NCBI GenBank assembly: GCA_030704615.1
Contig: CM060731.1
Coordinates: forward strand, 10,354,001-10,418,000
Source of the DNA: Takakia lepidozioides
Lineage: Eukaryota > Plantae > Bryophyta
Direction: 5' to 3'
Length of the DNA stretch: 64,000 nt
The translations under genes and the position numbers were made by a program. Shown in pieces: positions 30,519-63,274 of this stretch (position 1 is its first letter; each line of letters begins with the position of its first letter). Under the pieces are notes generated by a model. That model saw nothing but the letters and a program-made list of their open reading frames with translations, was not told the origin of the DNA and did not search any database.

Positions 30519-30892
30519 ACGCAGAACAGCAAAGAAAAAGTTAAGGAAAAGTAAACAAGAGATGGCGAAGGAGCTGCTCGAGAAACACGAGGCCTTCGCC
30601 GAACCTCACACCCCACCGGCCATAGCCGGTCGTCGTTCTGCCTTCTTCTGTACATTTTACCTTTATTCCATCTTTTCCATATTAACCTGTAGTAACGTAG
30701 TAACTAGTAACCTTAACCCTTAAGTTCCCAAGCGACCTGAATCGGGTCACTTTGAATTTGCAGTTCGACCTAATTTTGCAGATCTAATCTGATGGGCCCC
30801 ACTCCTGAAGCTTTAATGACAAGGGATTTGTCTCGAGTATGATTAAAAAAACAAAAGCTTTTACATACAAAAAATATCTTAGATCTCTGCAC

Positions 30893-30980
30893 TTGAGCAG
30901 GTAGCCCAGTGGTTGGGTGTGTCTGCCTTACCTGTGCATAACCTAGGTGATCCTGGGTTCAATCCTTCAACATGTGCCTT
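30893..30980 (+). mobile_element. tRNA-derived SINE-like head
   Basis: A-box-like TAGCCCAGTGG and B-box-like GGTTCAATCC at tRNA-like spacing; no valid cloverleaf. Confidence 0.45.
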
Positions 30981-32375: not shown

Positions 32376-32884
32376 TTATCCATCAGCTGTCCATGTAAAT
32401 GCAAGAAGCCCAAGCCCAAGAGAGGTGGAAAGTATGAACCCCCCAAACACATACAAGGTCCACCTTGATATCTTTGTTTCCTTCCCAGCTTTCTCCATCT
32501 TATCCAACATGCCCCTGATTCTATCAATATCCCCATCTTTTGCCGCTTTCACAATATCCCCTTCCATTGCAGCAAATTGCTTCATTCTTAACTCTTTTGC
32601 CTGGTCTCGACTTGACCAGATAAAACTGGTAATCCTCCACAGCAAAATCCCCATATAAATCCCTGCAACGACATCCACACTGTAGTGATGTCGTTCTCGA
32701 ATCTCACGCTGTGCTGAATGTACGACCAACAGCCATACTAGCACTGAAGTCCACCCCGGATACGCTTCCTGCATGTACCAAGCACCAATTATCAGCCCCT
32801 TGAGTTCACTGGCCTGATAAGATTCCCTTTACAGTCAAGTGAATTCATTTTAGACTTCCAAATGATCTGCATTTTCCCATGGCA

Positions 32885-32925
<41 letters not shown>

Positions 32926-35900: not shown

Positions 35901-37849
35901 CAACCACCGCCGGCTCTCTTCAAGGTCGTAAACCAGTTTTCACCCGCGCTGTGAGGGTAAAGCTCAGGGTCTGGGGGTCTTAAAATGTTGACCAGGAACT
36001 GCATGGGTCCCCAGTTTGGGACATACTCGGCTGGGTATTCACCCACTGATGCTGCAAACATAAACACAACCACAACCAAACATGTCGCCTGAATACTGAT
36101 CCAATCTGAAAAACGATCTTTCTAGAGAGATATAGAGAGACGATTCAAGTCTCATCTAGCTGGAACTATTCTTCCTCTATCTTAACACCATTTGACGAGT
36201 TGCACTTGGCCCCTATCGGCAGAAACATCTTCCATGCAATTGCTGCTGCAAAGTCATAGTCGTCATTTCAGCTGTTCCACTCCAGGTGTGCTACCAGATA
36301 AGCATGCACTGACAAACTGATAGACAAGTGAATTTCATGGACAGACGAGATGTTACAGACACCAAAAAAAACACATCTGTCAAGAGACAAGGAAATGACT
36401 TGCCATAGCTCTCATCGCGGTTAATTAGCTCCCGTATACTCTCAGGGTTGTTGGCGTACGGGAAATAGAATTTTTGTGCCCAAGGGTGCGGATAACTGGC
36501 TGTTCGAAAACGAGCATGTGCACACCAAGGTCTTGCCGACGGCAAAATAGTTGACACAAACGTCAAAACACGAATGAGCCGTCCTACCCCCATGGTAAAC
36601 ATATAGCGTGCCCCAATGCCAAGACCGGGGGCTTTGATGCAACCATACAACACAGAGAATGCCAGAAGAAGGAAGAGCATCAGGTAGTGGTGGAGTCCAA
36701 TAACTGGGGCCCGTAGCAGCTGCACGACTGGAGAAGGGAGTTTCTCGTTTAGAGCCAATAACAGCCATTGGCCAATGTCCGGAAGGGGGGCAGATCTCCT
36801 GCAAGAAGTGTACGACATAGAGAAAGTGTGGGTGTGTGCATTGCAGGTTTGGTCCCCCAACTTTCAAGAACAAGCTTTTCAGATATCTTAAACTGGGTGC
36901 AGGAAGGGGAGACCAAAGCAAAGGAAAAGGCATAACAAAGAGAGGAGGTAGGAGAGAAATAACTCTCCAACGCAATAATAGGTGGTGTGCCTAAGATCAG
37001 AAACTATTCTGAACACTGAAAACAACCGGCTGTACAATCATGTCGCAAAATCTTGCCCCAACTCTTGCAGGACACAACTCACAGTCCAAAAATATATTCC
37101 ACATGCACTAAATAAAAGGCCCACACTTGGGCCTCAAACATCATGCTACTGCTAACTTCCGCCTCCCCACTGCAAACGAAAAAAAAACCAACTGGTACAG
37201 ATCTTGGAAATGTCGATGCAGCTCAAGTTCACTTATGATTTCCAGAAAGAAATCTTTACAAAGAAACCATGTGGCTTCGATAGGCAAATCCGACTACTAG
37301 ATTTGCTTCAATATTTAAGGCCCCTTCCTCAAAATCATGTTGCTACCCGAATTTATAGTAGGTCACACATGTCTGTCATGGGGATCCAATTTTCACGCCA
37401 AATTGCTAAACTTATTAATTCTACGAGGAAGCTAAATTCCATACTCATCCCTCGCACGATCCATTTGTCTCCATTCGCAATCAAACCCGAAATCCCATGA
37501 ATTTCTCATTTGTGAGTGTACACAGTACATGGAAACAACACTAGGAGGGTCAGGCTTACCAATGCCAGTCAAGACCCATCACTGTGGTGACGTACTGTAC
37601 CGAAATAGCTTCGATGACCAGAGCGCTCAGCATGAATACTAAAGATCCCACAAACACCCCCACACTGCGAAGCTCGCGATTCCAGTACCCATAGAAAGGA
37701 GCCCGAACTGCTGCTGCAACTGCAAAAAATCCCCATAACAAAGGTCTCAGTCTCTCATGCAGATCTGGTGCTACTTCTCGCAGGTAGTCAACTCCTATGT
37801 AGCAAACCGCTGCCACCCCCAGCGCCTTGGGGTACGAGGCCATCGCCAT
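32376..37849 (-). CDS. PLM: Sphingomyelin-synthase-like PAP2_C protein, PHLOEM UNLOADING MODULATOR homolog; exons 37849-37560, 36798-36404, 36051-35840, 32768-32376 (429 aa)
   Basis: GLDWH, PLPDIGQW, STILPSARPWC, AGGGCNDLIFSGH, HSAQREIRERHHYSVD, AAKDGD recalled as matching Arabidopsis At1g43580; exon lengths sum to 1290 nt with compatible phases. Confidence 0.93.
32887..32921 (+). repeat. (CT)n microsatellite
   Basis: Direct observation. Confidence 0.95.
32935..33400 (+). mobile_element. LINE 3'-end fragment (CCHC zinc knuckle), copy a
   Basis: RNCPMCRQPEDNLHFLIHCPGY; homologous to copies b and c. Confidence 0.7.
33690..34490 (+). mobile_element. LINE 3'-end fragment, copy b
   Basis: KFKLKAGSLPLN...CKCPLCGQPEDNIHFLIHCPRYSNQR...FLEDIWK, typical non-LTR ORF2 C-terminus. 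Confidence 0.75.
34500..34920 (+). repeat. Old dispersed repeat, related to 60490-60845 and partly to 33405-33495
   Basis: Shared TTGAATGT.GCTAAGT...GAATTGCCTGATC..TTATTCTGTT...TTAACCTAA...AGCAGGCAA...TACTGCTG...TATGGCTACAAG.AAGGTA. Confidence 0.7.
34970..35480 (+). mobile_element. LINE 3'-end fragment, copy c
   Basis: KFKLRVGSLPLN...CQCLMCGRPQDNIHFLIQCPG. Confidence 0.7.
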
Positions 37850-38532
37850 CCTCCCTTCGTCTTCCCCACGCCTCGTACATGTTATGTTCCTCGTATCTGC
37901 AACCTGCCCACGTGGTATTTATATCAAAACCATGGATACTACGTGGCAAATGGCTGTTGGTGGGGTTCAAAGAAACATTGCAGCATATTCTTCCTCTCTT
38001 GGCATCTTCTCTCTTTTCTGATTCTCTCTGCGAACAAATTTGTGTTCTAAAGATTCCTTTAGTGGGTGACGCGATGTAGGATTGGGCAGTGCCGAGGTTG
38101 TGGGATTGAACATTGAACGAGCGTGTGCAACGAGATGATGACTGTGTAAGTATTCATTGCCAGTCTCACTCGCGACCGTTGCCTCCTGATTTGGGCCTGG
38201 GTTATGAATTTTAAAATGCAAATTTCTCACAGTAAAACCCTCTTCTTCACTCATGTCTACATCCCCATGTTCGACGTCATACATTTACAGCGATGTCTGT
38301 ATGTGGGCCATCCCATGCTCTGCCATGACATGCACTTCCATACATTGGTGGCAATATATTTAAGTACCATCTCGAGCCATCCCATACCATCGAGTCTGGT
38401 AGTGCATGTTAAAGAAGTTCGTTGGATTGTAGTCATTTCCCGAGCCATTACAAAATCAAAATCGAAGCACAATCCAATGATCACAGCAAATATTTATTAG
38501 AATTATATATACTGGAGTAAACCTATTAATAC

Positions 38533-40065: not shown

Positions 40066-40373
40066 TACTAGTGTTGGGAGGGTATTGGGTACGCAGAGGG
40101 TATCAACCAGTGTTGGTCTGATATCTTGAATTGGAAATACCAGAAGGGTCCTCGTATGCAGTGCTGAATTTTTTTTAAGGCAGGTAGGTTTTCCAATAAT
40201 GCAGCCCCTGATTTTTTCAAGTATGAATCTGGTATGTATAGAGTGGTTTTAAGAGAAAAAAAATCAATCCGGACATGAGCAATGACATCTGAATGTCAAT
40301 AAACGTATTAAAAATTAATAAAATAAAAATGGTACTAGTATTCAAATGACCATCTGAACAGTTCAAATGGCCA

Positions 40374-42569
40374 TGTCAAGTTAAATAAACACAGTGTGAA
40401 ACTAACTAGAATAAATCTAGTTATTTGTATTTAACACTTGGAATTAGTTCAAGTGTTAAGTCAGGTGTCAAGTTTAGCTTGACACCTGAACCATCTTAAC
40501 TTCACGAGCTCGTCAGTCAGTCGTGCGACTCATCTCTCTCGAGTTGAGCCTGCACGACGTAGCTCCCTCGCTGCTTAGCATCTGAATGTACTTATGGAGG
40601 GAGAGTAGGATGTTGTGGGGTGGAGTCCCCATAGCTTGGGGTGCCCCTAGCTCGACTCTTATTTTAACGAGTGATTGTATTGTATTTCGTGTTTTTGTGT
40701 CAACAGACACTCTGTGAGTTTAGTTTTCATATCACTCGAGCGAGATGGCTTGTGTCTTTTAGTGCGAGATACGAGTCTTAGTTAGCACTAGTGTCTTGTT
40801 TTTGTGTTTGAAGCTTCCTTAAGATGTCAGCTCAGTTGAGTGAGTGGAAGATTGAGTGGAAAAAAATTAGCAGTTGAAGGGATTACTCGTGTCGAGAAAA
40901 CCTGTAGTTAAGAGAAAAATGAAATTTTGAGAAGAAAGATTGGCTAGCAACGCTCCGAATGGTGTAGCCGTTGCTGCCAAGCCGTATTGGAACCAGCTCA
41001 TGACCTGCAACATCTAGCCTATAATATGCCAGGGATAAGCCACACGGAAGAGTATCTGCAAGGGTTGATGTTAGCCGATCTTGTAAGCTAGGAAGCTGAT
41101 AACAACACATGACGGGGCTGACCGCAACGTAGCCAGTTGGTTGGCGTCGATATGTTTACAAGGTACTTGCAGGCTGGTGCTTAAAAACCACAATGACAAG
41201 CAGAATATGGAGTGGCTTATTGGTAACTGAGTTAGCAAATATAATGAAAAGCCGTCACTCAAGTTGATGGTTGTTAAGAACAGGAAGAAGCGGGGAGCGG
41301 CAGTGTCTCGGTAGAGCAACCTGACGGTAGAGATGTGAAGAGAAGTGGAGCACGGTGTGAGGCCATGTTGGCTGGAAGAACTCAATGAATGATTTGCCAT
41401 CAGAATATTGGGTTCGTGGTCTGGCGGCTTCCATCGACTCGGACAAAAGCTGAACAGACCAGACCCTCGTTTTGTTTTCATTAATCGTATCCAAAGTCGA
41501 CCTATCGGGCTGGATATGACATTGGCTCTAATGGAGGACGATTAGCTAGCTCCATCGACGAACTCTGCAATGGTGGAGCTGCGGACAGAAGCTTGAATCA
41601 GAATTAACTTGGGCAATCGGCACTACTGCTCAGGTGGTCCTGGTTGGGATGTCCACTCGTCCATCTGTAGGTTTGATAAATCTACAGGGGCGATGTCATA
41701 GCGCACCTAGGTAGTCAAGTAACACCTCAGTGACACTTACGTTGCTGAGAGGGTAAGGTAATCATGATGGATTGATGTCAGTGGCAAGATGAACATGACG
41801 GATCTTGAGACTGTTGGAGACCTGCGAACAATGGAGTTTGGATGGCCTTGACTCGAGGAAGGTGTGAAGAAGATTGACAAGCTCCTCCGCCGTGACCAGG
41901 TTGTGGTGATCTCATTAATCTTTGTATTTTCCATGGTGGGCTATTTGAATTGGAATTGATCAGGGTTCGTTTTGCCTGCCAATCGAATACCAATAGTCAA
42001 CGATATGGCTGGCCACCACGTCAAGGTGAAGCTGGATTGAAGTTGGAAAATGGTGGATGGCTGTGAAATTGATTAGTCAATTCAAATGAGGGCCAATTGC
42101 TCTTGAATCGCTGGCCGAAGGTGGTGTCGGGCTCTAAATGGCTTGGGGATTTTGCGGGCACTCGCATGGCACTCGCATGGCACTGTATTTTTTTAACTTG
42201 ATGGGAACCTACAGGGAATCGCAAAAAGAAAAAAAAAAAGAAAAAAAAAAACGTGGGATCAGGGAACCAAAAGAAACTAATTGAAAATAGTTTTTCCTTG
42301 TATTTGTTTCCATTTAAGGTCATATATTATGTTTAGAGAGCCTGTTTGGCCACATCTTTGTCAAATGAGCTCCGTTTGACGCAGTTTTTGGGGAGATAGC
42401 TGCAGGAAGGGGAAATCTATCAACTCAGACCTCGTTTTAGTTTTTTGGACCTGACCAAAAATCTATAGAATTTTTCTAATGTAAATTAGATCTTCCCCAC
42501 ATATATTTGAGGTCCATTGAATAAGCTGTTTCAAGTTAGGGATGATCACCAAGCTTTCTGTTCGTAACA
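40374..42569 (+). mobile_element. Non-coding repeat 'A' with TGT...ACA ends (solo-LTR-like or non-autonomous element)
   Basis: First ~360 bp recur at 57785-58125 (+) and 54085-54404 (-); 42335-42422 recurs inverted at 52214-52308. Confidence 0.65.
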
Positions 42570-42573
42570 CACC

Positions 42574-45500
42574 TGTCACTCTTTGACATTAGTGTATGGC
42601 TAGAGAGGAAATGGAGAGTGTCGGGATGAGGGCATGCTGGGGTTAGGAATTGCTTTAGTCTCTCCTCCCCATAGCTTTCCACCCTCTCGGTAGGCCAAAA
42701 CCTTTCCATAGGTGGAGGCAAGAGTCAGTCCGGGTTTTTGGGCTGGGGTATTCTGCAGGAGCAGCACTGCGGAGGGATTTTGGTGTGGGGGTGTTGATGT
42801 TTTGATTTCTTGTGTTTGGATCCCCCCCAACACCTGCATGCTTGACTGTGCGTCATGTTGGTTTTGTGTGGGCGCTTGCTTTCATAGGGATTAGGCCGGA
42901 TTTGATCACCGGTCAATCCTAGAGTATGTTGTCGGTGGTGAGGCTGGAGTGATGACCAGCAAGAACACCAATGTTTCTTCTATGGTGAGACTAGGTTGAT
43001 GACCAGCCAACCATAGGAGTTCTTGCGGTGGATGCAAGTGCAGGTGCCCTGAGCCACTGGGATATGACCCTTAAACCGCAACAGATGCCCACCCGTGTCA
43101 CTATTAGAATTAGTACTAGAGCCTTATAGTGTCACGTGGAGGAGGTGCGGGTTGTGAGTATCATCACGGAGTTACCCAAGGGTTTTGAGGGGAGTACGGC
43201 TACAAACAGTAACAGTGAGAGTGGGTTCACAAGACGAGGGGTTCGGTTCAGACCACCTTCATCTCCACCCTCAACTAGTGTAGAGTCTGACACAGACTCG
43301 GAGGCTTCATCAACATGTGTGCAGTTTTCTTCGTCATTATTGTGGGACGACATGGAGGAGATGTATGGAACTACCAAGGGGCCTCGTAGGTACTCTGGAG
43401 CTGTGGGCACAATCAAGCTGGATGACTTTATCTAGGAGTTCGACAACTAGTGTGATTTGCAGCAGATACGCAATCCACAGCTGTTCACCCCATTCATGGT
43501 GTGGAAGTGACTGTTCCAGCATTTGGAAGGCCTGCCTATGGACGATTACCACGAGTTCAGGCGAGGACATGAAGCAGAGATTGAGGAGTGGAGGATATAT
43601 TGGTCACTTGACTACGTCTCCATTACTCGAGGCATGACGCGACCAGTAGCTGCATCAGCACCAATATCTCCCACTGCCAGCACTAGTAGTGGAACAAGTA
43701 GTGTCGGTACTTCTGCAGGTGGTACCAGTTCAAAAGGTGCTACTACTCCTCATGCCACAGCTACAACACATGTGCCTAGATTCAACCCGGTGGTGGAGTT
43801 CTTCCAGGAGTTGTGGAGGAACTACCAAGGCGTACGGACAGAGAAGCTGCGAAGTTTGCAAGACTTCCAGTGCAAATCCAGTGAGAGCTTGCGAGAGGCC
43901 TACACTTGTATGAGGCGCTTGATAAATGTGACCCAAGGGGTTACTGAAGCTCAGGCAGTCCAGTTCTGGTATGGAATTTTGGACAATGAGCTCAGGAGAA
44001 GGGTGCGGGATGCAACCCTGTTACAAGCGGCCCAACCCACATTAGCAGATGTGTTTCTGTTGGCTGAGCGGATTGAGCTCAACATGGTGGAGGAGCGAGT
44101 TGTTACCATTGGATTTGGCAAGGACATGTCTGCATGAGGCGCAGCTGCCAGCCAACAGGCACAAGGGACTGCCCAACAATGTGGTCAGGGGGGCAAGGTT
44201 GCCCAATCCAAATTCCATGGAGCTTACATGGGACCTCAAGTGCAGAGGCCAGTAGCATCTTTTGCAGGCCAACAACAACCAGGGGTGGTACGTTGGACAT
44301 GTGGAGGACCCCATGTCAAGAAAGATTGCCCAGAGAGTGACAAAGGGCCGACACAAGTACAGCCTGCATAGTTGCAGTGTGGGCATTGTGGCAAGTATGG
44401 GCATGGAGATGCCCAGTCTTATGACTTGCACCCTGAGTTGCGGCGAGGCCAGTTCCAAGGGAACAATGGTGGTCGAGGGAGAGGTGGAGCACCTCAGAGA
44501 GGTCGAGGTGGTCAGGCACGAGGTGCATGACAGGGCAAGCACAGTATGGCCAAGGATGTGGAGGTTAGGGCGTTGACCAAGGCATGGCCAACCGGCTTCA
44601 GCAGCTAGAACAAAGATTTGCTGCCATGGCTACAGCTCAGGTGGTACCAGCTCCAAGACCTGAGGGTCCACTTCCTGTTCTTCCTTAGCAGCGTCATCCT
44701 GACGGAAGAGACATGGGAGACATGAGATTTATGTGTGGGGCAGCACTACCACTACTGCAGGTGGAGTCTACTGCCATGAGCCACGAGGTGCAGATGTGGA
44801 GTTGGATCTACAGCGTGGGGAGGCTCGCCGTCAAGCTAGGTTGCCTCAATCATTCATCTTGGCGGAGATAGGGTCGATGACATCCATGGCACCTAGTTCT
44901 CGCCCGACGGATACCGAAGTAGAGGCCGTTATTGAGCTATTGGGGAGAGCTACACGTGCAGCACTGACACCTGCTGCCAAGGCTAGTGCAGCCAGTGTGT
45001 TGTTGGGGGCGGCCACCTCTTTGTGTCAGGCCACAGTGTTCTTGGCAACCATGATTGCGACGCCGGGGGTAAGACCAGCTGTAGTGTTCAGACTAGCAAC
45101 AACACTCTGTGAGAGTGAGGAGATCACTTCATCTTCTGCGGAGTTAGTGGAAGGTGTAGTGGCAGAGGGATCCTCGGATTTGAGGGTAAAGACTGCCACG
45201 GCTGCGCCATGTCAAGCTGCAGCTGTCAGGTTGACGGAGCTGCTAGCTATGCCAGCCTTTGAGCGCGCCATGGTGACATCTGGAGTTGTCTTGTTAGACA
45301 ATCAGGATGATATTTTCTCTTTGAGTGGACCGGCAGGCAAGAGGTACCGGCCACTGCGGGCCTTGTTGGACTCGGGAGCTCAGCCACTGATGTTGGGCAG
45401 AGCTGCTATTGCAGGTTTGGGCCTCATGGAGGCGGATATGGAGCCTTGTCCTTTCCAGATACAGACATCTCTGGGAGATTAGAGCAGGCTTGGGGCATGA

Positions 45501-47258
45501 TACGGCGTGAGTTGGCCATTAGACTACAGCCGGATCATCCTATAGATGGCTCAGTGATGCCAGCCAAGGCCATTATGACAGACGCGGTCTCTTACGATGT
45601 CTTCGTTGGTGGGGCAGTGTTGTATCACATGGGCTTCACCCTGGATTTTTGGGAGGAGTCAGCATCCTACAGGCCTAGATGACAATCAGGGGATGGTCGT
45701 CGTGTACAGGTTCCTGTGATATTCATTGGGGGTGTTGCTGCTGCCCAGCGGGGCAAGATGCCAACACTAGCAGCCTTCACAACTGCAGTTAATTGGCCTG
45801 GAGAGTTGCTGGAGGGCAATGCCCATGCAGATGATGTGCCACCTCCAGCAGAACAGGATGACATGCATGATATGGCGGAGTTGCCTGCCATGGTTGTTCA
45901 CACTCCATTGTGGGGTACGAGTAAGGATTTGCAGCAGGATGCTGATAGACGGGTGCAACAAGCTTGGGTAGATGTCTTTGTACCGTCAGGAGAGGAGGAG
46001 AGTGCGGTGATTGCACAAAGACCACCTCAGTTGTCGCCATTGGACACCACACCTATTGTGTGGCAGTGCCCGGATGAAGGCATATGCCTTCTGGACTTGT
46101 TTGGCGGGATCAGCACTGGATTGGCTACAGTGTTGCAGGCAGATGTACGAGTTCGACGTTACCTGTATGTGGAGAGGGATGAGACTGCACGACGTGTCTC
46201 ACTGCGTTATGTTGCTCAGTTGGTGCAGCAGTACCCTGATTTGTTGCCGGTGTCTGTAGTTCGTGGATACCAACAAGCCTTGTCAGCAAACATCTCTTTG
46301 TTGGGGGCATATGATTTGGAGCGGGTTGGCCATATTCACTTGGTAGTGGCAGGTTGGCCCTGCCAAGGGCATTCATCAGCCGGGTATGGCAATGGGTTAC
46401 AAGACTCAAGGTCACGTCTGTTTTGGGAGATGTTGAGGGTCTTACGCTATTTACAGCTTCAGCAAACAGACTCTCCGACATATATCTTGGAGAATGTGCC
46501 ATTGATGGGTGATTCTCGGGCCAAGGTGATGGCCGGTGTTCATCAAGTGCGGTCTTGGCTTGGGTCAGCAGTGTTGCTGGATGCAGCTGCAGTGGGGTCA
46601 CGGGCTCATCGCCCACGACTATGGTGGACCAACTTGATGTCACCTGCACTGCTCAAGCGTGCATTTGATGGGGTGCAACGGCCACCAAACCTGACGGTGG
46701 ATAGCATTTTGGACATAGGGAGATAGTCTCAACGTGTGAGACACGATGACTGATCATCTTTGGCAGTGGTCAATAAAGTGGATCACCCACGAGCAACATT
46801 ACCTACACTGCTCAGCTTTCCAGGATCTTATGCTTTCCGAGATGGTGGACCTGGCCTCTTGTGGGATAGCCAGTTGCAGCAGTTAGTGGAACCCAATGCT
46901 GACGAGCGCGAGCGGGCGATGGGTTTTACCACTGGTACCACGGCGGTGCCATCTCTTTCTAAGGCATCACGTCGTCAGGTGTTGGGGCAAGCAATGGATC
47001 TCAATTGCTTGACCTAGATTATCAGCTTGGCTATGGCTGAGCAGCATAGAGTACGGAGTACACTTCCCTTGATAGTCTCTCTGCCTACCGAGACGGTATA
47101 GGCAGCGAGTGGGGGCGAACAGGTGCGGACCACGAGGTGTAGGCCGCATCTATGGCACACGTGGGAGGTGCTCGAGGTTCAGAGGGATTTGGCAGCCAAG
47201 GCGGCGGTGATGGATGAGGTTGGGGATTTTTCTCGGGTTGAGGAGGTCCTCAAGGGTG
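42574..47258 (+). mobile_element. DNMT-carrying Ty3/gypsy, copy 1 (leader, gag, protease, methyltransferase; truncated before RT)
   Basis: Gag 43136-44690 with knuckles (WTCGGPHVKKDC, CGHCGKYGH); PR RALLDSGAQPLM; C5-MTase; several in-frame stops. Confidence 0.9.
46075..47030 (+). pseudogene. DNMT3-like C5 cytosine methyltransferase domain (copy 1)
   Basis: Motif I LDLFGGI, II YVERD, IV AGWPCQGHS, VI YILENV, VIII AHRPRLWWTNL, IX ERERAMGF, X RRQVLGQAM; stops at 46724, 46750, 47015. Confidence 0.93.
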
Positions 47259-47600
47259 TGTCGTGCGCATACGTATCGCTACACAACTACATCACTGTCC
47301 AAACCACACCACACATATATGCACAATAAAGTAGTCTGCCACAATCGCCCCCCTAGCTGGTGGTTAGGTCCCTCTAACTCCAGATAGCTACAAGATGTAA
47401 TAGCCACAGCCGTACTAAGTCCTCTATCACTGTCCCTTTTGTTCTCAAACTCTATAGACCAAGAGGCCGGGTACAAGAGCAACCCCATCGTTAGTCGCCG
47501 TCTTGCAATCTGTGAACTTGAGTCAGGATCTCGTGTGTTGGTCTCCTAGTAGCTTGGCCTTGCATTTTTTGTTAGCCTTCCATGGTTGTATCCACTCCCA

Positions 47601-47745
47601 CTATCCAATGCAATGCAGACATAACCAATCCCCATCATGAACCATCTCAAGAGGTGGAGTCAAGCATCCTATATGCCAACCTCTAGAACATCGATCACAC
47701 ATCAGCATGGTGGCTGCCCCTCTAGCAGACCCACACAACATGCAC
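47601..47745 (-). CDS. PHD finger at the integrase C-terminus
   Basis: CMLC-x11-CDRC-x4-HIGC-x11-WLCLHC, a C4HC3 pattern with LTPPL and conserved Trp. Confidence 0.92.
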
Positions 47746-50700
47746 CTCAAACTTGCAGGTACCACTGCCAGGTTTGGATCAATCCTGCCATCGATATTCG
47801 GAAGGTGACATGGCGCGCAATTACGCACATGGTCCTTCCAAGTCATGCCATCCCGACCCTCCAAGATCAAGACGCCTGAGGGAAATACCTCTCGAACCCT
47901 CAAAATAACATGTCATGCAGTCACATCCAGGGTCGTTGGAGCAGTCTGCTGCAAATAAACATAGTCACCAGGGTGAAATCTCCGAACCCCAGGACGATAG
48001 CCCCCACCACGTATGATAGCATACCTCAATGTATCACGATGTTGCGCAATGGCAAGGTTCTCGAAAGCCATGGGCATGACTTTCTTGAACAACTCCGCGC
48101 GCTGACCACATGTAGTGCCCACACGTCCGGATCGTCAAGGTTGAGAACTGTAGTAGCTTCTCTACGAATGGATGCAGGCAAATCTGGCTCTCGGCCAAAG
48201 AGAAGAAAATATGGTGAGAAGGAGGCAAGTGATGCTTGCTTGCTGAACCTGTAGCCCATGGCTAACCATGGTAACTAAAGGTCCCAATCTCCTAGGTGTC
48301 CCTTTTGCAAGCCATACTTGCGCAAACCCCTCTTCACTGTCTGAACAACCCTCTCTGCCAAGCCATCGGCCTCAGGATGATCCCGAGAAGTGGTGCGGTG
48401 GTCTACCAAGGCCTTGTCACACAACGTCTGAAACTCCCCCAAGAACTCATCTCCCTTGGTCCGTGAGTACCTCAGCTGGAGCACCGAATCGGCTAAGTAC
48501 ACAATCCAAGAATGCATACGCAGCTCCCTCACTAGCCTTATCAGGCAATGGAACCAACTCGATCCACTTGGAGAAGTGCTCCACCATCATCAACACGTAC
48601 TTATTGTGGCGCATGGTCAGTGGCAACGGCCCTACGAAGTCAAGACTCCACCTCTAGCCCAATCCCATGATCGGAAGAGGGTGCAATTGTGGAGTAGGGG
48701 CGTTGAATGAAGCACGCACCCTGTCACACACCATGCACCTAGCCACAAATTGTTGCACCTTTGTGTGCATACCATGCCACCAATCCTGCCCCTGCAGTAG
48801 ACTATGAGTGCGTCGCACCCCAAAATGCCCCAACTCCTCATGGGCATGCCGCACTAACCGTGCCCGCTGGGTTGGGTGAGGCACAATCCTCACTCAACCA
48901 TCTTCCCACACTTCAGAGCAGGTGTGTCCCCTCCCACTTGAACCTCTTGGCTCGTTGTAGGATCCGATCCCTCTCTTTGGCAGTCATAGTGGCTGCCGTG
49001 CCCCCAGTGCGGAGATAGTCCAACACAGCTGAATCCTCATGTATATCTTTGGCGCCACCTTGCTCATTGCTGGCCTCAGGATCCTCAGACACTCGGTCTA
49101 CAGTCATCCCTGTTGTAGGTCCAACCTGGCCTTCCGCTGCCAAGATACACAAAAATGCAAATGCATGCCATCCGGGCACCATCTCCTCGTCCGTCTCACC
49201 GTGCCACCGAGCTCCAGTGTCATCCTGCTGGCTCGTGCATGGATTGCGACTCAACCCATCCACATCCCGATTGACCAAACCCGGTCGATGCACAACCTGA
49301 AAGTTATACTCTTGAAGTATGAGTGCCCACCATGCAAGCTTCCCCGTAAGCTTGTCTGACTCCATCAACCACTTGAGTGGCTGGTGATCCGTGACAAGGG
49401 TGAAGAGATTGCCATATAGATAGCACCTGAAGTGTGCCACGGCCCACACTGCAGCTAAGCACTCTCCCTCATATGAGCTATACTTAGCCTCTGCAGCGTT
49501 GTTCGAGCGACTGTCATAAGCCTTTATAAACTCTCTTCCCTCATCATCCACCTGTGTAAGCACCGCTCCAAGCCCCATCATGCTCCAATCTGTATGCAGC
49601 TGAAAATGACGCCCCCTGATAGGTCGTCTCAAGATGGGTATCGAGGTCAACCTCGCCTTGAGCTCTTGGAAAGCTCGTTCTTGCTCATCTTTCCACTGCC
49701 ACTCCTGGTCCACCTTGGTCAGTTTGGTTAGAGCCTTTGCAATGGCACTAAATCCCTTAACAAACCGTCTATAATAGTTTGCTAACCCCATGAAAGCTCG
49801 AACTCGGCTCACATCCGTGGGGCGTGGAATCTGTGCAATGGACTCTACCTTAGTCTGCTGTACCCCCAATCCTCCAGGATATATCATGTGACCCAGATAC
49901 TCAATTCGGTTGTGGAAAAACTTGCACTTCCCCGGATGTAAGTTCAATCTGTGCGCCCTCAAGCGCTCAAATACCACCTGAAGGTGTCTCTCATGCTCCT
50001 CTACCGTAGCACTAAAGATGATGATGTCATCTATGTAGCACCGAGTAAACTCCACCCCTGCTAGAATCCTGTCCATGACTCTCTGAAATTCTGCCAAAGC
50101 ATTTTTAAGCCCAAATGGTAAGAACCGCCACTGGTATAGGCAATCTTTCTCGTGCTCATTGATCCCCCAGAATGTCATCTTCTGCTTATCCGCCTCCTTG
50201 ATCGGCAACTGGTGATATCCAGATCGTAAATCCAAAGTGCTAAAGATTTTGGCATGCCCAATGGCATCAAAGATCTCCTCCGGTATCGGCATGGTATACC
50301 TATCGGACTTGGTCTGACAATTTACAGGCCGGTAATCACCGCACATACGCCTCTCCGTCCAATTGCCATAGACATCCTTCTTGGCTGACATCACTATGGC
50401 TGAAGCATACTCTCCCCCAGATAGCTCCACCAACCCAGCCTCCCAAAGGTCCTGAGTTCTCATCTGAATCAATGACCTCTCTATGTCACTGTATCTATAG
50501 GGTCTCCGAAAGATTGGTGTGTCAGTAGCCAATTCAATGCGAATCTCTTGACCCTTCAGTGCTCATAAGTCCTTCAAACTGAAGGCAAAGCAGTTCCTGT
50601 AAGTCCTCACAAACCGCCGTATACGTCGTCTCTCTCCTTCGGTGACTATAGGTCCAACATCAGGCTCCCAGTTGTCCTCCGTGACTGCAACCTTGAGTCC

Positions 50701-51028
50701 AGCAGGCTTAGAGGTAGAAGACGCGTCTCGTGGTTGCTATGCTGCAACCTCTTGAGCAGTGATCACTACCTCCTCTATCAGTGACAATGTCTCATCCTGC
50801 CCCATCATCCCATCCTTGAGGACCTCCTCAACCCGAGAAAAATCCCCAACCTCATCCATCACCGCCGCCTTGGCTGCCAACTCCTTCTGAACCTCGAGCA
50901 CCTCCTACGTGTGCAATGGATGCGGTCTGCACCTCGTGGTCCTCACCTGTTCGCCCCCACTCGCTGCCTGTACCGTCTCGGTAGGCAGGGAGACCATCAA
51001 GGGAAGTGTACTCCGTACTCTGCGCTGC

Positions 51029-51985
51029 TCAGCCATAGCTGATAATCCAGGTCAAGCAATTGAGATCCATTGCTTGCCCCAACACCTGACGACGTGATGC
51101 CTCAGAAAGAGATGGCACCGCCGTGGTACCAGTGGTAAAACCCATCGCCTGCTCACGCTCGTCAGCATTGGGCTCCACTAATTGCTGCAACTGGCTATCC
51201 CACAAGAGGCCAGGTCCACCATCCCGGAAAGCATGAGATCCTGGAAAGCTGAGTAGTGTAGGCAATGTGGCTCGTGGGTGACCCACCTTATTGACCACTG
51301 CCAAAAGTGATCGGTCATTGTGTCTCACACGCTGAGACTTTCTCTCCATGTCCAAAATGCTATCTACCGTCAGGTGTGGTGGCCGCTGCACCCCATCAAA
51401 TGCACGCTTGAGCAATGCAGGTGGCATCAAGTTGGTCCACCATAGTCGTGGGCGATGAGCCCGTGACCCCAATGCAGCTGCGTCCAGCAACACTGCTAAC
51501 CCAAGCCAAGACCGCACTTGATGCACACTGGCCATCACCTTGGCCCGAGAATCACCCATCAATGGTACATTCTCCAAAATATATGCCGGAGAGTCTGTTT
51601 GCTGAAGCTGTAAATAGCGTAAGACCCTCAACATCTCCCAAAACAGGCGTGACCTTGAGTCTTGTAACCCATTGCCATGACCAGCTGATGAATGCCCTTG
51701 GCAGGGCCAACCTGCCACTACCAAATGAATAGGGTCAACCCGCTCCAAATCATGCGCCCCCAGCAAAGAGATGTCTGCTGGCAATGCTTGTTGGTATCCA
51801 CGAACTGCAGACACTGGCAACAAAATCAGGGTACTGCTGCATCAACTGAGCAACATGGCGTATTGAGACGCGTCGTGCAGTCTCATCCCTCTCCACATAC
51901 AGGTAACGTCAAACTCGTACACCTGCCTGCAACACTGCAGCCAATCCAGTGCTGATCCCGCCAAACAAGTCCAGAAGGCATATGC
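51029..51985 (-). pseudogene. DNMT3-like methyltransferase domain (copy 2)
   Basis: Same motifs as copy 1; motifs III-X uninterrupted in ORF 51029-51823; one stop (51909) and one frameshift upstream. Confidence 0.93.
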
Positions 51986-52213
51986 CTTCATCCGGGCACT
52001 GCCACACAATAGGTGTGGTGTCCAATGGCGACAACTGAGGTGGTCCTGGTGCAATCATCGCACTCTCCTCCTCTCTTGACGGTACGAAGGCCTCTACCCA
52101 GGCTTGTTGCACCCGTCTATCAGCAACCTGCTGCAAATGCTTGCTCGTACCCCACAATGGAGTGTGAGCAACCATGGCAGGCAACTCTGCCGTACCATGC
52201 ATGTCATCCTGCT

Positions 52214-54404
52214 AGATAGGTAGATTTCCTCTTTCTGCAGCTATCCCCCCAAAAAACTGAGTCAAACGGAGTCCATTTGACAAAGATATGACCAATTAGG
52301 CTCTAAATCATTTAAATTAGATCAAAAGGGGTTTTTTTTTTTTTAACACCAAAACGTTCTCGCCATTAAAAATTGCTCCCAAGTCATCTACGAGTTCCCA
52401 ACACGTCCACGTAGTTCTCACAGATTCCCTGGATTTCACCTACAGGTGTTTCAAACATACACCGGTGAACTGCTCTGCTCCAGCCAAGATTTGTAGCTAT
52501 GCCGACTCTGGGGCTTTGATTCTTCGCATCCACTCCATCTAGCACACCCTTCCATGCCACACTTGACGTGCACATGCCTCAGTGAAGCAATCTGAACACC
52601 TTCGCTCTTCATCAGGGCTGCCAAGCTTCTATTGCAAGTACATGTAAATGAATTATGTGGAGCCTGAGTGACACATCTGCCCCTTTAGTTGTGCACCCAA
52701 CGAACTAATCTTCAGAGGAACAAAATCTAACTCCTACCAACTCGTCTAGCTCTATCAAGTTCTGCGCTTTTGCCTCGCCCAATCTGCATCAGCCCCCAGG
52801 GTGCAAAACCTAAGATTTTGGTAACACAGGGCGCACGCTTCTCGCAGACTTATTCCAAATGTTGTGCCTCGTAACAATGCACTGCAAAATACCCTTAGAT
52901 CATGTCATATGACCGAAACACCTCCCAAAGATTGTTGTGTTGCATTCCCTGAAACACCAGGCACACTAGTGCCCAGCGCAGGAGAGCCTTGGGAAAGTCG
53001 GCCATTCCCTGCAACTGACTGCCCGTTCTCCAAAGAGATTCCTCCGGTCCCAAATTTGTTGTCTAAATGCTGGAGACCTGGAGCACCGCCCTAACCAGTT
53101 GTTGTCCCTGGCCGAGCATGGTCTAGAGGTTGCAGAGGTCCTGGTTCTGACTTCACGTGTGTTAGCTGTGAGGCTTGCACAGGCAAGAGCTTCTTGTCTC
53201 TTTGCTTTCGAAGCTTCTTCTGACTGGAACCTAAGGGCTGAACCTTGGTCTGCAGGTCCGAAGATTGGTCTGAAGAGAGAGCAAGTGTAGATGGCAGCTG
53301 CCCACCAGGTTTTGACAGAGTATCATCAGGGCTTGTCCGTGCATTAGGGATGGCTCGAGTGCTTGCATCGCGGAAAAGAGAGCCTAAAAATGCACGCATA
53401 CGTTGATGGTGTTTCAAACAGTACACCTTAGTGGCCATTGGTAAGGGATTAACCTCAGCCGTATCATGCAGCTTCCCGCCATACTGAAGGCGATTATTGT
53501 TGGCTTTGAAGTGCTGCAGCAACACTTTGAATGGTTTCCGCCTTCCTATTACTGCCCGTTTGTTTGCTTCAGTGTGCAATTTACAGGTCAAGGATCAGCG
53601 ACAACAGGCACCAAATTGCCCCATCACCACCCCACAAAGCACATCTAGCTCCTCCGTTGTCAACAACTTTGGTCTTTTCCGAGGTGGTGATTTGGTGTCC
53701 GCCAGACTTGTGCTTCTTGGCCCTAGCCCTGCTCCATCCTCTCCTAGTCATCCTCTCGGCGTCCTTACCAAGCTGACCCATAAGCACGACAACCGCTTCT
53801 CATTCGGCCTTCACTACTCGCACACCATACATATGGTCAGAATGAGTCTGAGTTCCTACTGTCACCACCAACCAAAACCAAGAGGCAGGAGCCCTCCTCT
53901 GATTGCTATGCTTTCCATGATCATCTATATACCCAGAAACCAGAGATGATCGGAACCTGCATGTTTCTTTTTGTTTTTTGTTTTTTTTTTAAGCTTCTCA
54001 AACTAAGCACTACTTACACACATGTAATCATACAAGTGCTAACCCTCAACTCCTACCTTGCACTTACAGGTAAGAGATCATCTCTCTCGAGTGATAGAAA
54101 CTTAGACTCACACTGTTGACACAAGAACATGAAATACAACACCATCACTCGTTAAACTAAGAGTCGAGCCAGGGGCACCCCAAGCTATGGGGACTCCACC
54201 CCACAACATCCTATTCTCCCTTCATAAGCACACTCAGATTCTAAGCAGTGAAGGAGCTCGGTCGTGTAGGCTCAACTCGAGAGAGATGAGCCGCACGACT
54301 GACGAGCTCGTGAAGATAAGATGGTTCAGGTGTCAAGCTAAACTTGACACCTGACTTAACACTTGAACTAATTCCAAGTGTTAAATACAAATAACTAGAT
54401 TTAT
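52214..54404 (-). mobile_element. Repeat 'A' family member, inverted and truncated at both ends
   Basis: Both ends homologous to 40410-40750 and 42335-42422; the middle is not visibly alignable. Confidence 0.65.
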
Positions 54405-57400
54405 GGAGAGGTCCTTGATTCAGATGATGACTCATGACCTCTGGGAGGCTGGTTTGGTGGAGCTATCTAGTGGAGAATATGCTTCAGCCACAGTGATGCC
54501 AGCCAAGAAGGACGTCTATAGCAATTGGACGGAGAGACGTATGTGCGGTGATTACCGGCCTGTAAATCGTCAGACCAAGTCTGATAGGTATGCCATGCCA
54601 ACACCAGAGGAGATCTTTGATGCCATTGGGCATGTCAAAGTCTTTAGCACTTTGGATTTACGATCCAGATATCACCAGTTGCCGATCAAGGAGGCGGATA
54701 AGCAGAAGACGACATTCTGGGGGATCAATGAGCACGAGAAGGATTGCCTATACCAGTGGCGGTTCTTACCATTTGGGCTTAAGAACGCTCCTGCAGAGTT
54801 TCAAAGAGTCATGGACAGGATTCTAGCAGGGGTGGAGTTTGCTCGGTGCTACATAGATAACATCATCATCTTTAGTGCTATGGTGGAGGAGCATGAGAGA
54901 CACCTTCAGGTGGTATTTGAGCGCTTGAGGGCGCACGGATTGAAGTTACATCCGGGGAAGTGCAAGTTTTTCCACAACCAAATTGAGTATCTGGGTCACA
55001 CGATATATCCTGGAGGATTGGGGGTACAGCAGACTAAGGTAGAGGCGGATGTGAGCCGAGTTCGAGCTTTCATGGGGTTGACAAACTATTATAGACGGTT
55101 TGTCAAGGGATTTAGTGCCATTGCAAAGGCTCTAACCAAGCTGACCAAGGTAGACCAGGAGTGGCAGTGGGAAGATGAGCAAGAACGAGCTTTCCAAGAG
55201 CTCAAGGCGAGGTTGACCTCGATACCCATCTTGAGACGGCCTATCAGGGGGCGTCATTTTCAGCTGCATACAGACTGGAGCATGCTGGGGCTTGGAGCGG
55301 TGCTCACATAGGTGGATGATGAGGGAAGAGAGTTCGTAGTGGCTTATGCTAGCCGCTCGAACAACGCTGCAGAGACTAAGTATAGCTCATATGAGGGAGA
55401 ATGCTCCCAAGGGAATACGATTGCGTAAGACATACTAAGGTCATTTCCAGTAATGTGTGAATGTACGAATGAACAAATGGATGACGACCAGTATGGATGA
55501 AGAATCCTAGAATGATGCCAATATGACTGTGTAAATGTGATTTTATCACTACATGTGTAGATGTGTCGATAGGCGGCTGGGTAATGTAATGCCAAATTGA
55601 CCTACAAATGGGAGTTTGTAGCCTCATAGTTCAACAAATGCGACCCCCTATGCTTTTCTTTAGAACACATTTTCTGCAAGAACAAACAACACATATACAT
55701 AAAGATGATGATTCATACACAAAGTTCCAAACGATTATGCGGAGATTACATAATAGACAACGGTTACGGTACTGTAGAAAAGGAAGACAATGAGGAGACC
55801 TACACAAAGAAAAATGAAGTGAACTTGCTTTTCAAAAAAGGAAACTCAAAAGCTAATGGAACAAAAGGAACCACAAAAAACATACGAACAAAAATATTTG
55901 ACTGAAGGCCCATGATGTCAACTCCAATGGATGTCAGATCAAGACTTATTGTTGGAGTGTGGGCCGTGGCACACTTCAGGTGCTATCTATACGGCAATCT
56001 CTTCACCCTTGTCACGGATCACCAGCCACTCAAGTGGTTGATGGAGTCAGATAAGCTTACGGGAAGCTTGCACGGTGGGCACTCATACTTCAAGAGTATA
56101 ACTTTCAGGTTGTGCATCGACGGGGTTGGTCAATCGGGATGCAGATGGGTTGAGTCGCAATCCATGCACGAACCAGCAGGATGATACTGGAGCTCGGTGG
56201 CATGGTGAGATGGACGAGGAGATGGTGCCCGGATGGCATGCATCTGCATTTCTATGTATCTTGGCAGCGGAAGGCCATGTTGGACCTACAACATGGATGA
56301 CTGTAGACCGAGTGTCTGAGGACCCTGAGGCCAGCAATGAACAAGGTGGCGCCAAAGATATACATGAGGATTTAGCTGTGTTGGACTATCTCCGCACTGG
56401 AGACACGACAGCCACTGTGACTGCCAAGGAGAGGGATCGGATCCTACAATGAGCCAAGAGGTTTAAGTGGGAGGGGACACACCTGCTCCGAGTGTGGGAA
56501 GATGGTCGAGGGAGGATTGTGCCTCACCCAACACAGCGGGCACGGTTAGTGCGGCATGCCCATGAGAAGTTGGGGCATTTTGGGGTGCAACGCACTCATA
56601 GTCTATTGCAAGGGCAGTATTGGTGGCGTGGTATGCACACAGAGGTGCAACAATTTGTGGTTAGGTGCATGGTGTGTGACAGGGTGCGTGCTTCATTCAA
56701 CGCCCCTACACCACAATTGCACCCTCTTCCGATCATGGGATTGGGCTACAGGTGGAGTCTTGACTTCGCAGGACCGTTGCCACTGACCATGCGCCACAAC
56801 AAGTACGTGTTGGTGATAGTGGAGCACTTCTCCAAGTGGATCGAGTTGGTTCCATTGCCTGATAAGGCTAGTGAGGGAGCTGCGTATGCATTCTTGGATC
56901 GTGTACTTAGCCGATTTGGTGCTCCAGCTGAGGTACTCACGGATCAAGGGAGAGAGTTCTTGGGGGAGTTTCAGGCGTTGTGTGACAAGGCCTTGATAGA
57001 CCACCGTACCACTTCTCGGGATCATCCTGAGGCCGATGGCTTGGCAGAGAGGGTTGTGCAAACGGTTAAGAGGGGTTTGCGCAAGTATGGCTTGCAGAAG
57101 GGACACCTTGGAGATTGGGACCTTTAGCTACCCTGGTTAGCCATGGGCTCCAAGTTCAGCAAGCAAGCATTACTTGCTTCGTTCTTGCCTTATTTCCTTC
57201 TGGCCGAGAGCCAGATTTGCCTGCATCTATTCGCAGGGAGGCTGCAGTAGTTCTCAATCTTGACGATCCGGACGTGTGGGCACGTGCATGTGGTCAGCAT
57301 GCGGAGTTGTTCAAGAAAGTCATGCCCATGGCTTTCGAGAACCTTGCCATTGCACAACATCGTGATACGTTGAGGTATGCTACCATACGTGGTGGGGGCT

Positions 57401-57782
57401 ATCGTCCTGGGGTTCGGAGATTTCACCCTGCATTGGATAGTGGGAGTAGATACAACCATGGAAGGCTAACAAGAAATGCAAGGCCAAACTACTAGGAGAC
57501 CAACACACGAGATCCTGGCTCAAGTTCACAGATTGCAAGACGACGACTAACGATGGGGCTACTCTTGTACCCAGCCTCTTGGTCTATAGAGTTTGAGTAT
57601 AATAGGGATAGTGATAGAGGACTTAGTACGGCTGTGGCTATTACATCTTGTAGCTATCTGGAGTTAAAAAGACCTAATCACCAGCTAGGGGGGCGATTGT
57701 GACAGACTACTTTATTGTGCATATATGTGTGGTGTGGTTTGGACAACGATGTAGTTGTGTAGCAATACGTATGCGTACGACA
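54403..57782 (+). mobile_element. DNMT-family Ty3/gypsy, copy 3 (RT-RH-INT; PHD deleted; 3' UTR, PPT, 85-bp repeat 57698-57782)
   Basis: Highly similar to copy 2; foreign insert 55406-55955; deletion junction near 57430. Confidence 0.92.
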
Positions 57783-57784
57783 GC

Positions 57785-58125
57785 TGTCAAGTTAAATAAA
57801 CACAGTGTGAAACTAACTAGAATAAATCTAGTTATTTGTATTAGTTCAAGTGTTAAGTCAGGTGTCAAGTTTAGCTTGACACCTGAACCATCTTATCTTC
57901 ACGAGCTCGTCAGTCGTGCGGCTCATCTCTCTCGAGTTGAGCCTACACGACCGAACTCCCTCGCTGCTTAGCATTTGAGTGTACTTATGGAGGGAGAGTA
58001 GGATGTTGTGGGGTGGAGTCCCCATAGCTTGGGGTGCCCCTGGCTCGACTCTTATTTTAACGAGTGATTGTATTGTATTTGGTGTTTTTGTGTCAACAGA
58101 CACTGTGAATTTAATTTTCATATCA
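57785..58125 (+). repeat. Repeat 'A' 5' segment
   Basis: Direct repeat of 40374-40734 with small indels. Confidence 0.9.
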
Positions 58126-58126
58126 T

Positions 58127-58211
58127 TGTGGCAGACTACTTTATTGTGCATATATGTGTGGCGTGGTTTGGACAACGATGTAGTTGTGTAGCGATACGTA
58201 TGCGCACAACA
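58127..58211 (+). repeat. 85-bp terminal repeat 'B' (third copy)
   Basis: TGTGGCAGACTAC...GCGCACAACA, matches 57698-57782 and reverse complement of 47259-47343; followed by GCCA. Confidence 0.92.
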
Positions 58212-63000: not shown

Positions 63001-63274
63001 TATTGGTCCCATTCCAAAAATTGAAAAGGATTCCAAAGGTTTGAACTTCGGCCTCATTGGTCTGCGGGATGAGTTGTATGTGGTGGGTGGCATGGTGGTG
63101 AGACGGTTGGCCAATAATGGGCAATCCACAATGTGTGACATTGTGAGGTTGAATTCGGTGATTGCTTGTAACCCTACCATCGAAGGCAATAGTGTGACCT
63201 GGAGGCAGTTGAAACCTATGGGGGAGTCAAGAGGGGCAGTTCTGGGTTGTGCGGTTTTAGAGGAGAGTTGGTGA
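60011..63274 (+). CDS. F-box/kelch-repeat protein (At1g16250-like); exons ~60011-60039, 61632-62217, 62709-63274; two apparent 1-bp frameshifts
   Basis: LIPGLPNDLAIHCLAKISHGYHG (F-box), WLFVL, kelch repeats GKVYVAGG, AEVYDP, ELYVVGG; phase-compatible GT-AG introns. The first exon is inferred; an in-frame ATG also lies at 59966. Confidence 0.88.

Follow-up and report, generated by a model that had tools for sequence, protein, structure and literature searches.

The role of transposon-borne DNA methylases has been a question since 2018, and the known cases reside in algae with few genetic tools. KnitGypsy-Dnmt3 of Klebsormidium nitens is a Gypsy element with a Dnmt3 domain and DIRS-like repeats, and evolves with Ka/Ks <0.2 (PMC5890265; de Mendoza et al. 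2018). The review file of that paper describes the DIRS repeats as A1, A2 and two B repeats. Within the text of PMC5890265, the methyltransferase (DNMT) shares an open reading frame (ORF) with reverse transcriptase (RT) and RNase H (RH), the element is presented as an acquisition of the K. nitens lineage, and self-methylation of the cDNA is proposed. Two later papers cite it as a streptophyte case (one of them bioRxiv 10.64898/2026.05.21.726589). Here we describe a Ty3/gypsy family from mosses and liverworts whose Gag-protease frame closes with a DNMT3-like cytosine methyltransferase. Two copies lie in the window, by which we mean the whole 64,000-nucleotide stretch analysed, positions 10,354,001 to 10,418,000 of contig CM060731.1 (assembly GCA_030704615.1) of the moss Takakia lepidozioides.

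Two nested elements

The window contains two insertions, element I and, nested inside it between DNMT and RT, element II (Table 1). GCCA flanks element I on both sides (40370-40373 and 58212-58215), its parts lie on the same strand and its domains are collinear. Because element II merely interrupts element I, Gag, protease (PR), DNMT, RT, RH and integrase (INT) belong to a single insertion. An earlier note on this DNA had counted three copies; its Gag-PR-DNMT piece and its RT-RH-INT piece (54403-58211) are one element between the GCCA sites. At their junction, element I lacks ∼326 bp and element II 37 bp. Both copies are dead, with stops and frameshifts in each, and the lesions of the two methyltransferases differ, as the note had said.

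The family is assigned to Ty3/gypsy by its Gag-PR-RT-RH-INT order, an integrase that follows RNase H, DDE and HHCC motifs, and a 4-bp target duplication. Pfam matches DNA_methylase in both copies (E 3.5e-10 and 2.8e-11), RVT_1, RT_RNaseH and PHD in the reverse-strand copy, and rve in the integrase of element I (56453-57124, forward strand); Integrase_H2C2 also matches integrase. Gag and PR of the window gave no Pfam match, and their identification rests on homology to the Marchantia protein P0002, on CCHC-like knuckles, on LLDSGA, and on a relative whose N-terminus matches Gag/CCHC look-alike clusters.

The methyltransferase domain

Both window DNMTs carry motifs I, IV, VI, VIII, IX and X in unpermuted order, with the catalytic PC and ENV. 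In element I (forward strand) these are LDLFGGI (46091), GWPCQ (46352), ILENV (46484), AHRPRLWWTNL (46604), ERAMGF (46910) and RQVLGQ (46973). The same six motifs, all of which the earlier note had quoted, lie in element II (reverse strand) at 51974, 51712, 51580, 51460, 51154 and 51091, with EQAMGF in place of ERAMGF. Compared with solved chains, a profile of the family DNMT matches DNMT3A best (E 8e-21), followed by DNMT3B/C; a permuted DRM-type chain reaches 2e-10 at best and M.HhaI 4e-7, and bacterial enzymes rank below the DNMT3s. The predicted model of the open DNMT of locus L022, a relative 64–67% identical to the window copies, has a predicted local distance difference test score (pLDDT) of 87 and matches DNA-bound DNMT3A (6f57) with template modelling (TM) scores of 0.74/0.82. 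As judged from profile and model, the closest solved sequence and fold are those of DNMT3, and the predicted fold is complete. The claim of a Ty3/gypsy element with an unpermuted DNMT3-like domain between PR and RT is confirmed.

To follow conservation beyond the window we use a metagenome scan of 87 loci, 80 of which were kept. Of these, L018-L075 (58 loci) are treated as moss-type; the algal-type loci L076-L092 encode DNMT between RNase H and integrase. All were collected via DNMT, and many of them represent one insertion sampled more than once. The catalytic Cys is present in both window copies and in 58/58 moss-type loci, the Asn of ENV likewise in 58/58, and its Glu in 55/58. Decay of the motif VIII arginines affects roughly a fifth to a third of the dead moss-type copies. 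No variation is seen at the catalytic Cys, at ENV or at either motif VIII arginine among the 16 algal-type loci in which these positions are covered. The ratio of nonsynonymous to synonymous substitution (dN/dS) between the window copies is 0.39 (0.23–0.68) for DNMT, 0.33 for RT and 0.23 for INT; window DNMTs against those of other loci give 0.10–0.13, from deep pairs with dS near 2, near saturation. Values were withheld for Gag, PR and most deep RT pairs because dS was saturated. The DNMT domain has been kept across the family by purifying selection, somewhat less strictly than RT.

A conserved stop between methyltransferase and reverse transcriptase

In the land-plant clade an in-frame stop parts Gag-PR-DNMT from RT-RH-INT-PHD. 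A stop followed by CAA CC occurs in 35/38 related loci (32 by pattern and three from inspected misses); the remaining three show two stops, a TAC and an insertion at this site. Gag, PR, DNMT and RT share a common frame in most loci, with a modal offset of 0 in 22/35, 40/41 and 25/36. The natural proteins P0002, P0325, P0347 and P0366 (1,278–1,332 amino acids (aa)) terminate at the stop, and RT-RH-INT-PHD is annotated as a second ORF of ∼1,040 aa. For the paired ORFs of 1,319 and 1,040 aa, the longest contig is 8,781 bp for each. Since the stop cuts Gag-PR-DNMT from RT-RH-INT-PHD, the methylase is likely produced at the Gag level, and the earlier view of an enzyme that is simply part of Pol does not hold for this clade.

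The sequence CARYYA is a read-through signal, which CAA CCA fits. The commoner CAA CCC ATG departs from it at the last base and supplies a start codon. Our literature search found no paper on the read-through motif. Judging from the frames, DNMT sits on the abundant Gag frame whether RT is reached by read-through or by re-initiation. Contigs of run X9, which we guess to be RNA, span Gag, PR, RT and INT, leave the DNMT core uncovered, and offer no evidence either way.

Host, distribution and relatives

The Takakia window is moss DNA. Its four-exon PLM gene shares 75% identity with a Sphagnum protein and groups with mosses in a tree, outside Sphagnum and the other sampled mosses (99/98; one gene, 28 rows). 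Algal contamination, which the earlier note had named as a possible refutation, is excluded by this intron-split gene.

A DNMT query returned 41 longer proteins, including many Marchantia polymorpha models and proteins of Calypogeia fissa, two Sphagnum species and Chromochloris. Sixteen of the 41 are MARPO or Mp-chromosome gene models, with more under other labels. An RT query adds Closterium (DNMT-RT) and Coleochaete (RT-RH-INT-PHD, with no DNMT seen in that ORF). No fern, lycophyte, hornwort or seed-plant label appears among the DNMT matches, most of which are unlabelled, and no Klebsormidium-labelled protein appears among the matches to either query. Gene annotation lists such copies as hypothetical proteins of the host, which could distort plant methyltransferase counts. 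Because Marchantia polymorpha combines many copies with methylation mutants and methylome data, the role of the methylase is directly testable there.

Eight of the 11 checked moss-type loci are nearest a Sphagnum protein (74–95%), whereas L018, L062 and L064 are nearer liverwort proteins. Gag, PR, DNMT, RT and INT are ordered on one strand in 15/58 moss-type loci, seven of which also encode PHD. The full Gag-PR-DNMT-RT-RH-INT-PHD order that the earlier note proposed to rebuild as a consensus is already present in these seven natural loci and in P0322, a single open protein of 2,811 aa. In a second organism (organism B, run X7) the family is present in one contig at 90–94% DNA identity; DNMT is linked to RT-PHD on a 5,009-bp contig there.

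More distant relatives are numerous. The DNMT profile matches 511 cluster representatives at E 1e-30 or better. Among the best 150, 99 have the algal-type order, 10 the PR-DNMT-RT order and 41 DNMT alone. Algal-type proteins also include P0034, P0038 (Chromochloris) and P0392 (Scenedesmus). Nearly all full-length relatives have a PHD finger on the integrase. Viral contigs, when scanned, yielded 17 loci, but the matches were weak and partial (28–53% over short stretches) and were not used.

RT-RH and DNMT trees each split moss-type from algal-type elements. The algal-type RTs form one clade (96), and RTs of both types stand apart (branch support 100) from Ty3 rows with a chromodomain and from the other ordinary ones. 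The trees were built by a quick method with midpoint root and no named reference clades, and the DNMT tree contains element DNMTs only. One old acquisition of DNMT, followed by relocation of the domain, would fit both trees. Elements of the Sphagnum type cluster with those of liverworts (95 and 98) and not with the moss elements of the window, a pattern that may reflect either old paralogy or transfer between bryophytes.

Split ends, target duplication and priming

The ends, the stop, the target duplication and the putative self-priming site go beyond the earlier note. Full copies (element I, L031 and L057) consist of A1, body, purine run, B1, two bases, A2 and B2. L062 has the 3′ part of these A...B-A-B ends, L022 stops in A2, and seven moss-type loci and element II end in a single B. 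In element I, A1 and A2 differ by 12 substitutions in 298 shared columns, and B1 and B2 at 5/85 sites. A G-rich run, the expected polypurine tract (PPT), precedes B1. All six insertions with both ends (five loci and element I) are flanked by a 4-bp target duplication. The B1-A2 join is a GACA-GC-TGTC or GACA-AT-TGTC palindrome in 5/5 intact joins, GACA-GC-TGTC being the form in element I; L055 has a deletion at this join. Five A-B joins are variable, two of which retain remnants of the primer site or purine run, and 60 contigs of run X1 extend beyond B into the start of A. Summed over contigs (69,568), the depth of run X1, which may be the source sample, is high in every domain; this depth is no copy number and was not used as evidence. 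In L027 (5531-5819) and L028 (13189-13477), the A-B join carries 9 nucleotides (nt) of primer site and a few further bases, in a rearranged copy. The single-B locus L044 and the B-A-B locus L062 have almost the same 3′ flank, so single-B ends can be secondary or assembly-collapsed. A search for the palindrome in algal-type loci was negative in 9/13, several of which have <2 kb after PHD.

The left end is A alone and the right end B-A-B or B, so the two ends are not formed by two complete identical long terminal repeats (LTRs). We do not claim a canonical LTR element, since the ends are a variant structure. An alternative in which A belonged to an unrelated element as its LTR and B was a very short LTR was dropped, as L057, L031 and L062 show the same B-A-B end; the 4-bp duplications around the whole unit also exclude it.

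The bases that follow A1 suggest self-priming rather than a tRNA primer, and the site does not start with TGG. In element II a 15-nt perfect complement lies inside A, a length reached by 0/200 shuffles. Complements of 10–17 nt between the bases after A1 and the interior of A occur in 8/14 moss-type left repeats, seven of them at position 164–171, ∼25–30 nt past a TATA-like box at 138. The sequence of the complement differs between two hosts.

Proposed cycle and alternative explanations

We consider it probable on balance that DNMT is packed at the Gag level, freed by the protease, and methylates double-stranded cDNA, such that new copies would enter the genome marked like host repeats. Under this model the main product would be Gag-PR-DNMT, with RT-RH-INT-PHD arising by stop read-through; because the RT part would need read-through, DNMT molecules would far outnumber those of RT in each particle. 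The model has reverse transcription start by self-priming, in the way of Tf1/Tcn1. Plus strands would begin at the purine run before B, placing a B+A repeat at both cDNA ends, which would be joined as a circle or by an RT end-jump. Cleavage by integrase would then fall within the internal GACA-NN-TGTC palindrome, with loss of two bases and insertion of A...B-A-B; if both repeats were cut at their inner sites, the dead-end A...B form would result. Before integration, the released DNMT would methylate the long-lived double-stranded intermediate, and the copy would arrive marked like host repeat DNA. Recognition of histone H3 at the target would fall to the PHD finger. As precedents, SymbioDIRS-Dnmt3 methylates CG in yeast (PMC5890265) and foamy-virus integrase cleaves palindromic LTR-LTR joins (PMC1180852). 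If true, the end-joined route would be an unusual integration mode for a DDE-integrase element.

Several observations weigh against this model. KnitGypsy-Dnmt3 gave no methylation in yeast, a result that its authors call inconclusive (PMC5890265). DNMT is less constrained than RT, both in deep pairs with dS near saturation (about 0.11 versus 0.05) and among moss-type copies (median 0.61 versus 0.44). Among the best 150 cluster representatives, which are distant relatives (P0379-P0524 and four earlier proteins), motif IV has EC in place of PC in 89, and PC in 49. C-to-T differences between the window elements occur at 0.157 per CG site, 0.136 per CHG site and 0.073 per CHH site; with CHG nearly as frequent as CG, no CG-only self-mark is visible, and the pattern fits host enzymes. 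The algal-side relatives P0322, P0507 and P0353 lack the stop, and most moss-type stops continue CAA CCC ATG, so re-initiation at the downstream ATG could stand in for read-through. The self-priming complement test failed in 6/14 left repeats, and the 7-nt perfect stretch of element I is reached by 19/200 shuffles. No A-B-A...B left end occurs among the loci with mapped ends, though a symmetric circle predicts such a form, which argues against a plain symmetric circle. Moreover, as the loci were found through DNMT and insertions repeat among them, their counts are not independent and are mute on members without DNMT. The excess of CG and CHG over CHH shows, as read from these substitutions, that genomic copies were methylated, but not by which enzyme. 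CpG depletion does not point to self-marking in particular, the ratio being 0.36–0.58 in element domains, 0.41–0.73 in host coding sequence and 0.94 in the other Ty3 of the window.

Other roles for the domain draw on the same observations. It might be retained to bind nucleic acid or modify RNA within the particle, and not to methylate DNA, given its place on the structural (Gag) frame, the inactivity of the Klebsormidium domain in yeast (PMC5890265) and the replacement of PC by EC in many algal relatives. The complete fold of the L022 model, the invariant Cys, ENV and motif VIII arginines of the 16 algal-type loci, and the Cys and Asn of every moss-type locus make such a role distinctly unlikely. 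Alternatively, DNMT may act on host chromatin, either with the PHD-bearing integrase at the insertion site or in trans genome-wide upon expression. The PHD finger of nearly all full-length relatives would suit this, Gag-level expression would supply enough enzyme, and the algal-type DNMT lies directly ahead of integrase (in 99 of the best 150 representatives it follows RT/RH or precedes INT). We regard action on chromatin as unlikely, as the land-plant DNMT is parted from integrase by RT and RH and the protease would free it.

The ends raise two further alternatives. DNMT could guard the integrase site in the manner of a restriction-modification pair, methylating the B-A palindrome that is finished first, so that integrase cuts only the newer one and spares the integrated B1-A2 join. 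An uncut GACA-NN-TGTC is kept in every full copy and no A-B-A left end is found; the palindrome and the end of B contain CG and CHG cytosines; DNMT co-occurs with split repeats in Klebsormidium as well as here; and two algal-type elements show a G-run followed by the same 10-mer. The algal 10-mer is weak, however, being confined to two elements among 13 loci, with a looser pattern arising in 6–13/100 simulations; the AT-spacer variant is poorer in cytosines, and an RT end-jump also accounts for the asymmetry, which together leave guarding improbable. A different proposal replaces the integrase-cut step only: the ends would be inherited through RNA as in Ngaro/VIPER, A2-B2 not being remade, and single-B forms would come from B1-B2 recombination or assembly collapse. 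The A1...B1-A2-B2 order is that of VIPER and Ngaro (PMC6681497), the near-identical flank of L044 and L062 agrees with it, and 3/5 A-B joins are flush or one base off. We find it doubtful, though a serious contender for that one step; the family has a DDE integrase and 4-bp duplications instead of a recombinase, and the primer-site and purine-run remnants in two joins would be left unexplained.

A broader conjecture is that of an old Ty3 lineage of green plants, living in chlorophytes as well as in mosses and liverworts, in which end-joined cDNA would be cut at the palindrome within the repeat and a DNMT loaded by read-through would choose and protect integrase sites. We think this a long shot, but if true it would place restriction-modification-like logic within a eukaryotic retroelement.

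Other features of the window

The leaders of elements I (40790-42330, forward strand) and II (52212-54030, reverse strand) are wholly different from ∼60 bp past A1 to a common 84-bp block, and each ends near an A-rich run. The family may capture host transcripts in its leader, in view of these unlike leaders, the SCA7 fragment in element II and the A-rich runs at the leader ends.

Outside the two elements, positions 8109-14985 hold an ordinary chromodomain Ty3 with LTRs 96% identical, many frameshifts and a pol CpG ratio of 0.94, and 18171-21769 contains CACTA-type transposase pieces (Transposase_21, DUF4218, DUF4216). Host genes at 28764-37918 and 61769-63274 comprise a seven-unit polyubiquitin, the four-exon sphingomyelin-synthase-like PLM and a kelch-repeat gene. 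At 24685-26393 and 32993-35480 lie degenerate tandem repeats and a repeat in three copies, whose cysteine-rich frame has no Pfam match.

Table 1. Features of elements I and II, in positions of the window
Feature	Position	Strand	Remarks
Element I	40374..58211	+	A1 - 5′ leader - Gag - PR - DNMT - (element II) - RT - RH - INT - PPT - B1 - A2 - B2; PHD deleted
Repeat A1, LTR-like, element I	40374..40733	+	begins TGTCA
Predicted self-primer inside A1, element I	40530..40544	+	complement of 40734-40747, one mismatch
Primer-binding-like site directly 3′ of A1, element I	40734..40747	+	complement inside A1
Gag, element I	43352..44530	+	62% to Marchantia P0002 N-terminus; 6 in-frame stops
Two CCHC-like knuckles in Gag, element I	44300-44329, 44378-44404	+	from motif map
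Aspartic protease, element I	45282..45727	+	LLDSGA at 45363-45380; frameshifted; homology to Marchantia P0002
DNMT3-like C5 methyltransferase, element I	46079..47035	+	stops at 46724, 46751, 47015
RT, RH and integrase, element I	54403..57430	+	RH split by 547-bp insertion 55406-55952; PHD part deleted at 57430
3′ end, element I	57687..58211	+	PPT-like run 57687-57696; B1 57698-57782; GC spacer; A2 57785-58124; B2 58127-58211
Element II	47259..54404	-	clipped A1 - leader - DNMT - stop - RT - RH - INT - PHD - PPT - B; gag and PR deleted
A1, element II	54079..54404	-	first 37 bp lost; includes primer-binding-like site 54079-54092
SCA7 zinc-binding domain fragment, host-like gene piece in leader, element II	53493..53681	-	Pfam PF08313 E 6.3e-14
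DNMT3-like domain, element II	51032..51986	-	one stop and one frameshift, N-terminal part
Conserved in-frame stop between DNMT and RT, element II	50737-50739	-	TAG CAA CCA; likely read-through site, not lesion
RT and RNase H, element II	49237..50544	-	open frame; YIDD at 50023-50037; Pfam
Integrase, element II	48278..48951	-	HHCC zinc finger, D-D-E motifs; frameshifted
PHD finger, integrase C-terminus, element II	47604..47753	-	Pfam PF00628 E 1e-09
Polypurine-tract-like run, element II	47345..47354	-	from sequence
Repeat B, 3′ end of element II	47259..47343	-	ends CGACA; no A2-B2 beyond

Comparison with known systems

A DNMT-bearing Gypsy element is not a new idea, KnitGypsy-Dnmt3, the nearest element known, having been published in 2018. 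Compared by description rather than by sequence, that element and the window family share an unpermuted Dnmt3-like domain in a Gypsy body, purifying selection and DIRS-type repeats; the bryophyte family differs in its in-frame stop before RT, the single ORF being found in more distant relatives such as P0322. The text of PMC5890265 does not mention target duplication, self-priming, the palindrome or PHD, though its Fig. 4c may show domain order and PHD, and Marchantia is unnamed in the main text and three supplements. The novelty suggested by the earlier note is accordingly narrower: Gypsy-DNMT3 with DIRS-like repeats and the idea of self-methylation are in PMC5890265, whereas no DNMT-bearing Ty3 family of land plants was found in the literature searched, a scope outside which most subscription journals fall, so that a report may exist. 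The comparison also spans PMC8566409, PMC8616336 and bioRxiv 363937, 2022.06.16.496473 and 2021.02.12.428880; no report of a chlorophyte Gypsy-DNMT3 was seen in the papers compared. Within these sources we did not find in print the occurrence across mosses and liverworts (Marchantia among them), the algal form, the stop ahead of RT, or the end structure and duplication.

SymbioDIRS-Dnmt3 is a DIRS element with a tyrosine recombinase rather than a DDE integrase. This dinoflagellate element is otherwise similar in its DNMT3-type enzyme, its split or DIRS-type repeats and the proposed methylation of cDNA (PMC5890265). Ngaro, PAT and VIPER likewise have A1...B1-A2-B2 ends (PMC6681497) but use a tyrosine recombinase, whereas the window family has an rve integrase and 4-bp duplications; no Pfam match to a tyrosine recombinase was obtained in the element frames or in P0322.

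EpiLTRs and DAM-LTRs are LTR elements with DNA methyltransferases (bioRxiv 10.64898/2026.05.21.726589). Their DNMT, however, is DNMT4-related and accompanied by DAM and chromodomains, and the authors of that preprint separate it from streptophyte Gypsy-DNMT3. The Chlamydomonas elements Gypsy-7a_cRei and REM1 are, as described in the sources compared, Gypsy elements with a PHD finger for which no methyltransferase is named. Tcn1 and the Tf1-sushi chromoviruses, found in non-seed plants, self-prime in place of using a tRNA primer (PMC6317226), a mode that the complement inside A suggests for the window family. Unlike these, the window family has a PHD finger and no chromodomain on its integrase, and the RT tree had no named Tcn1 reference. 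Split ends of the kind described here would escape programs that detect LTR elements by a matching LTR pair, a possible reason for the absence of the clade from the classification of plant elements as given in PMC6317226.

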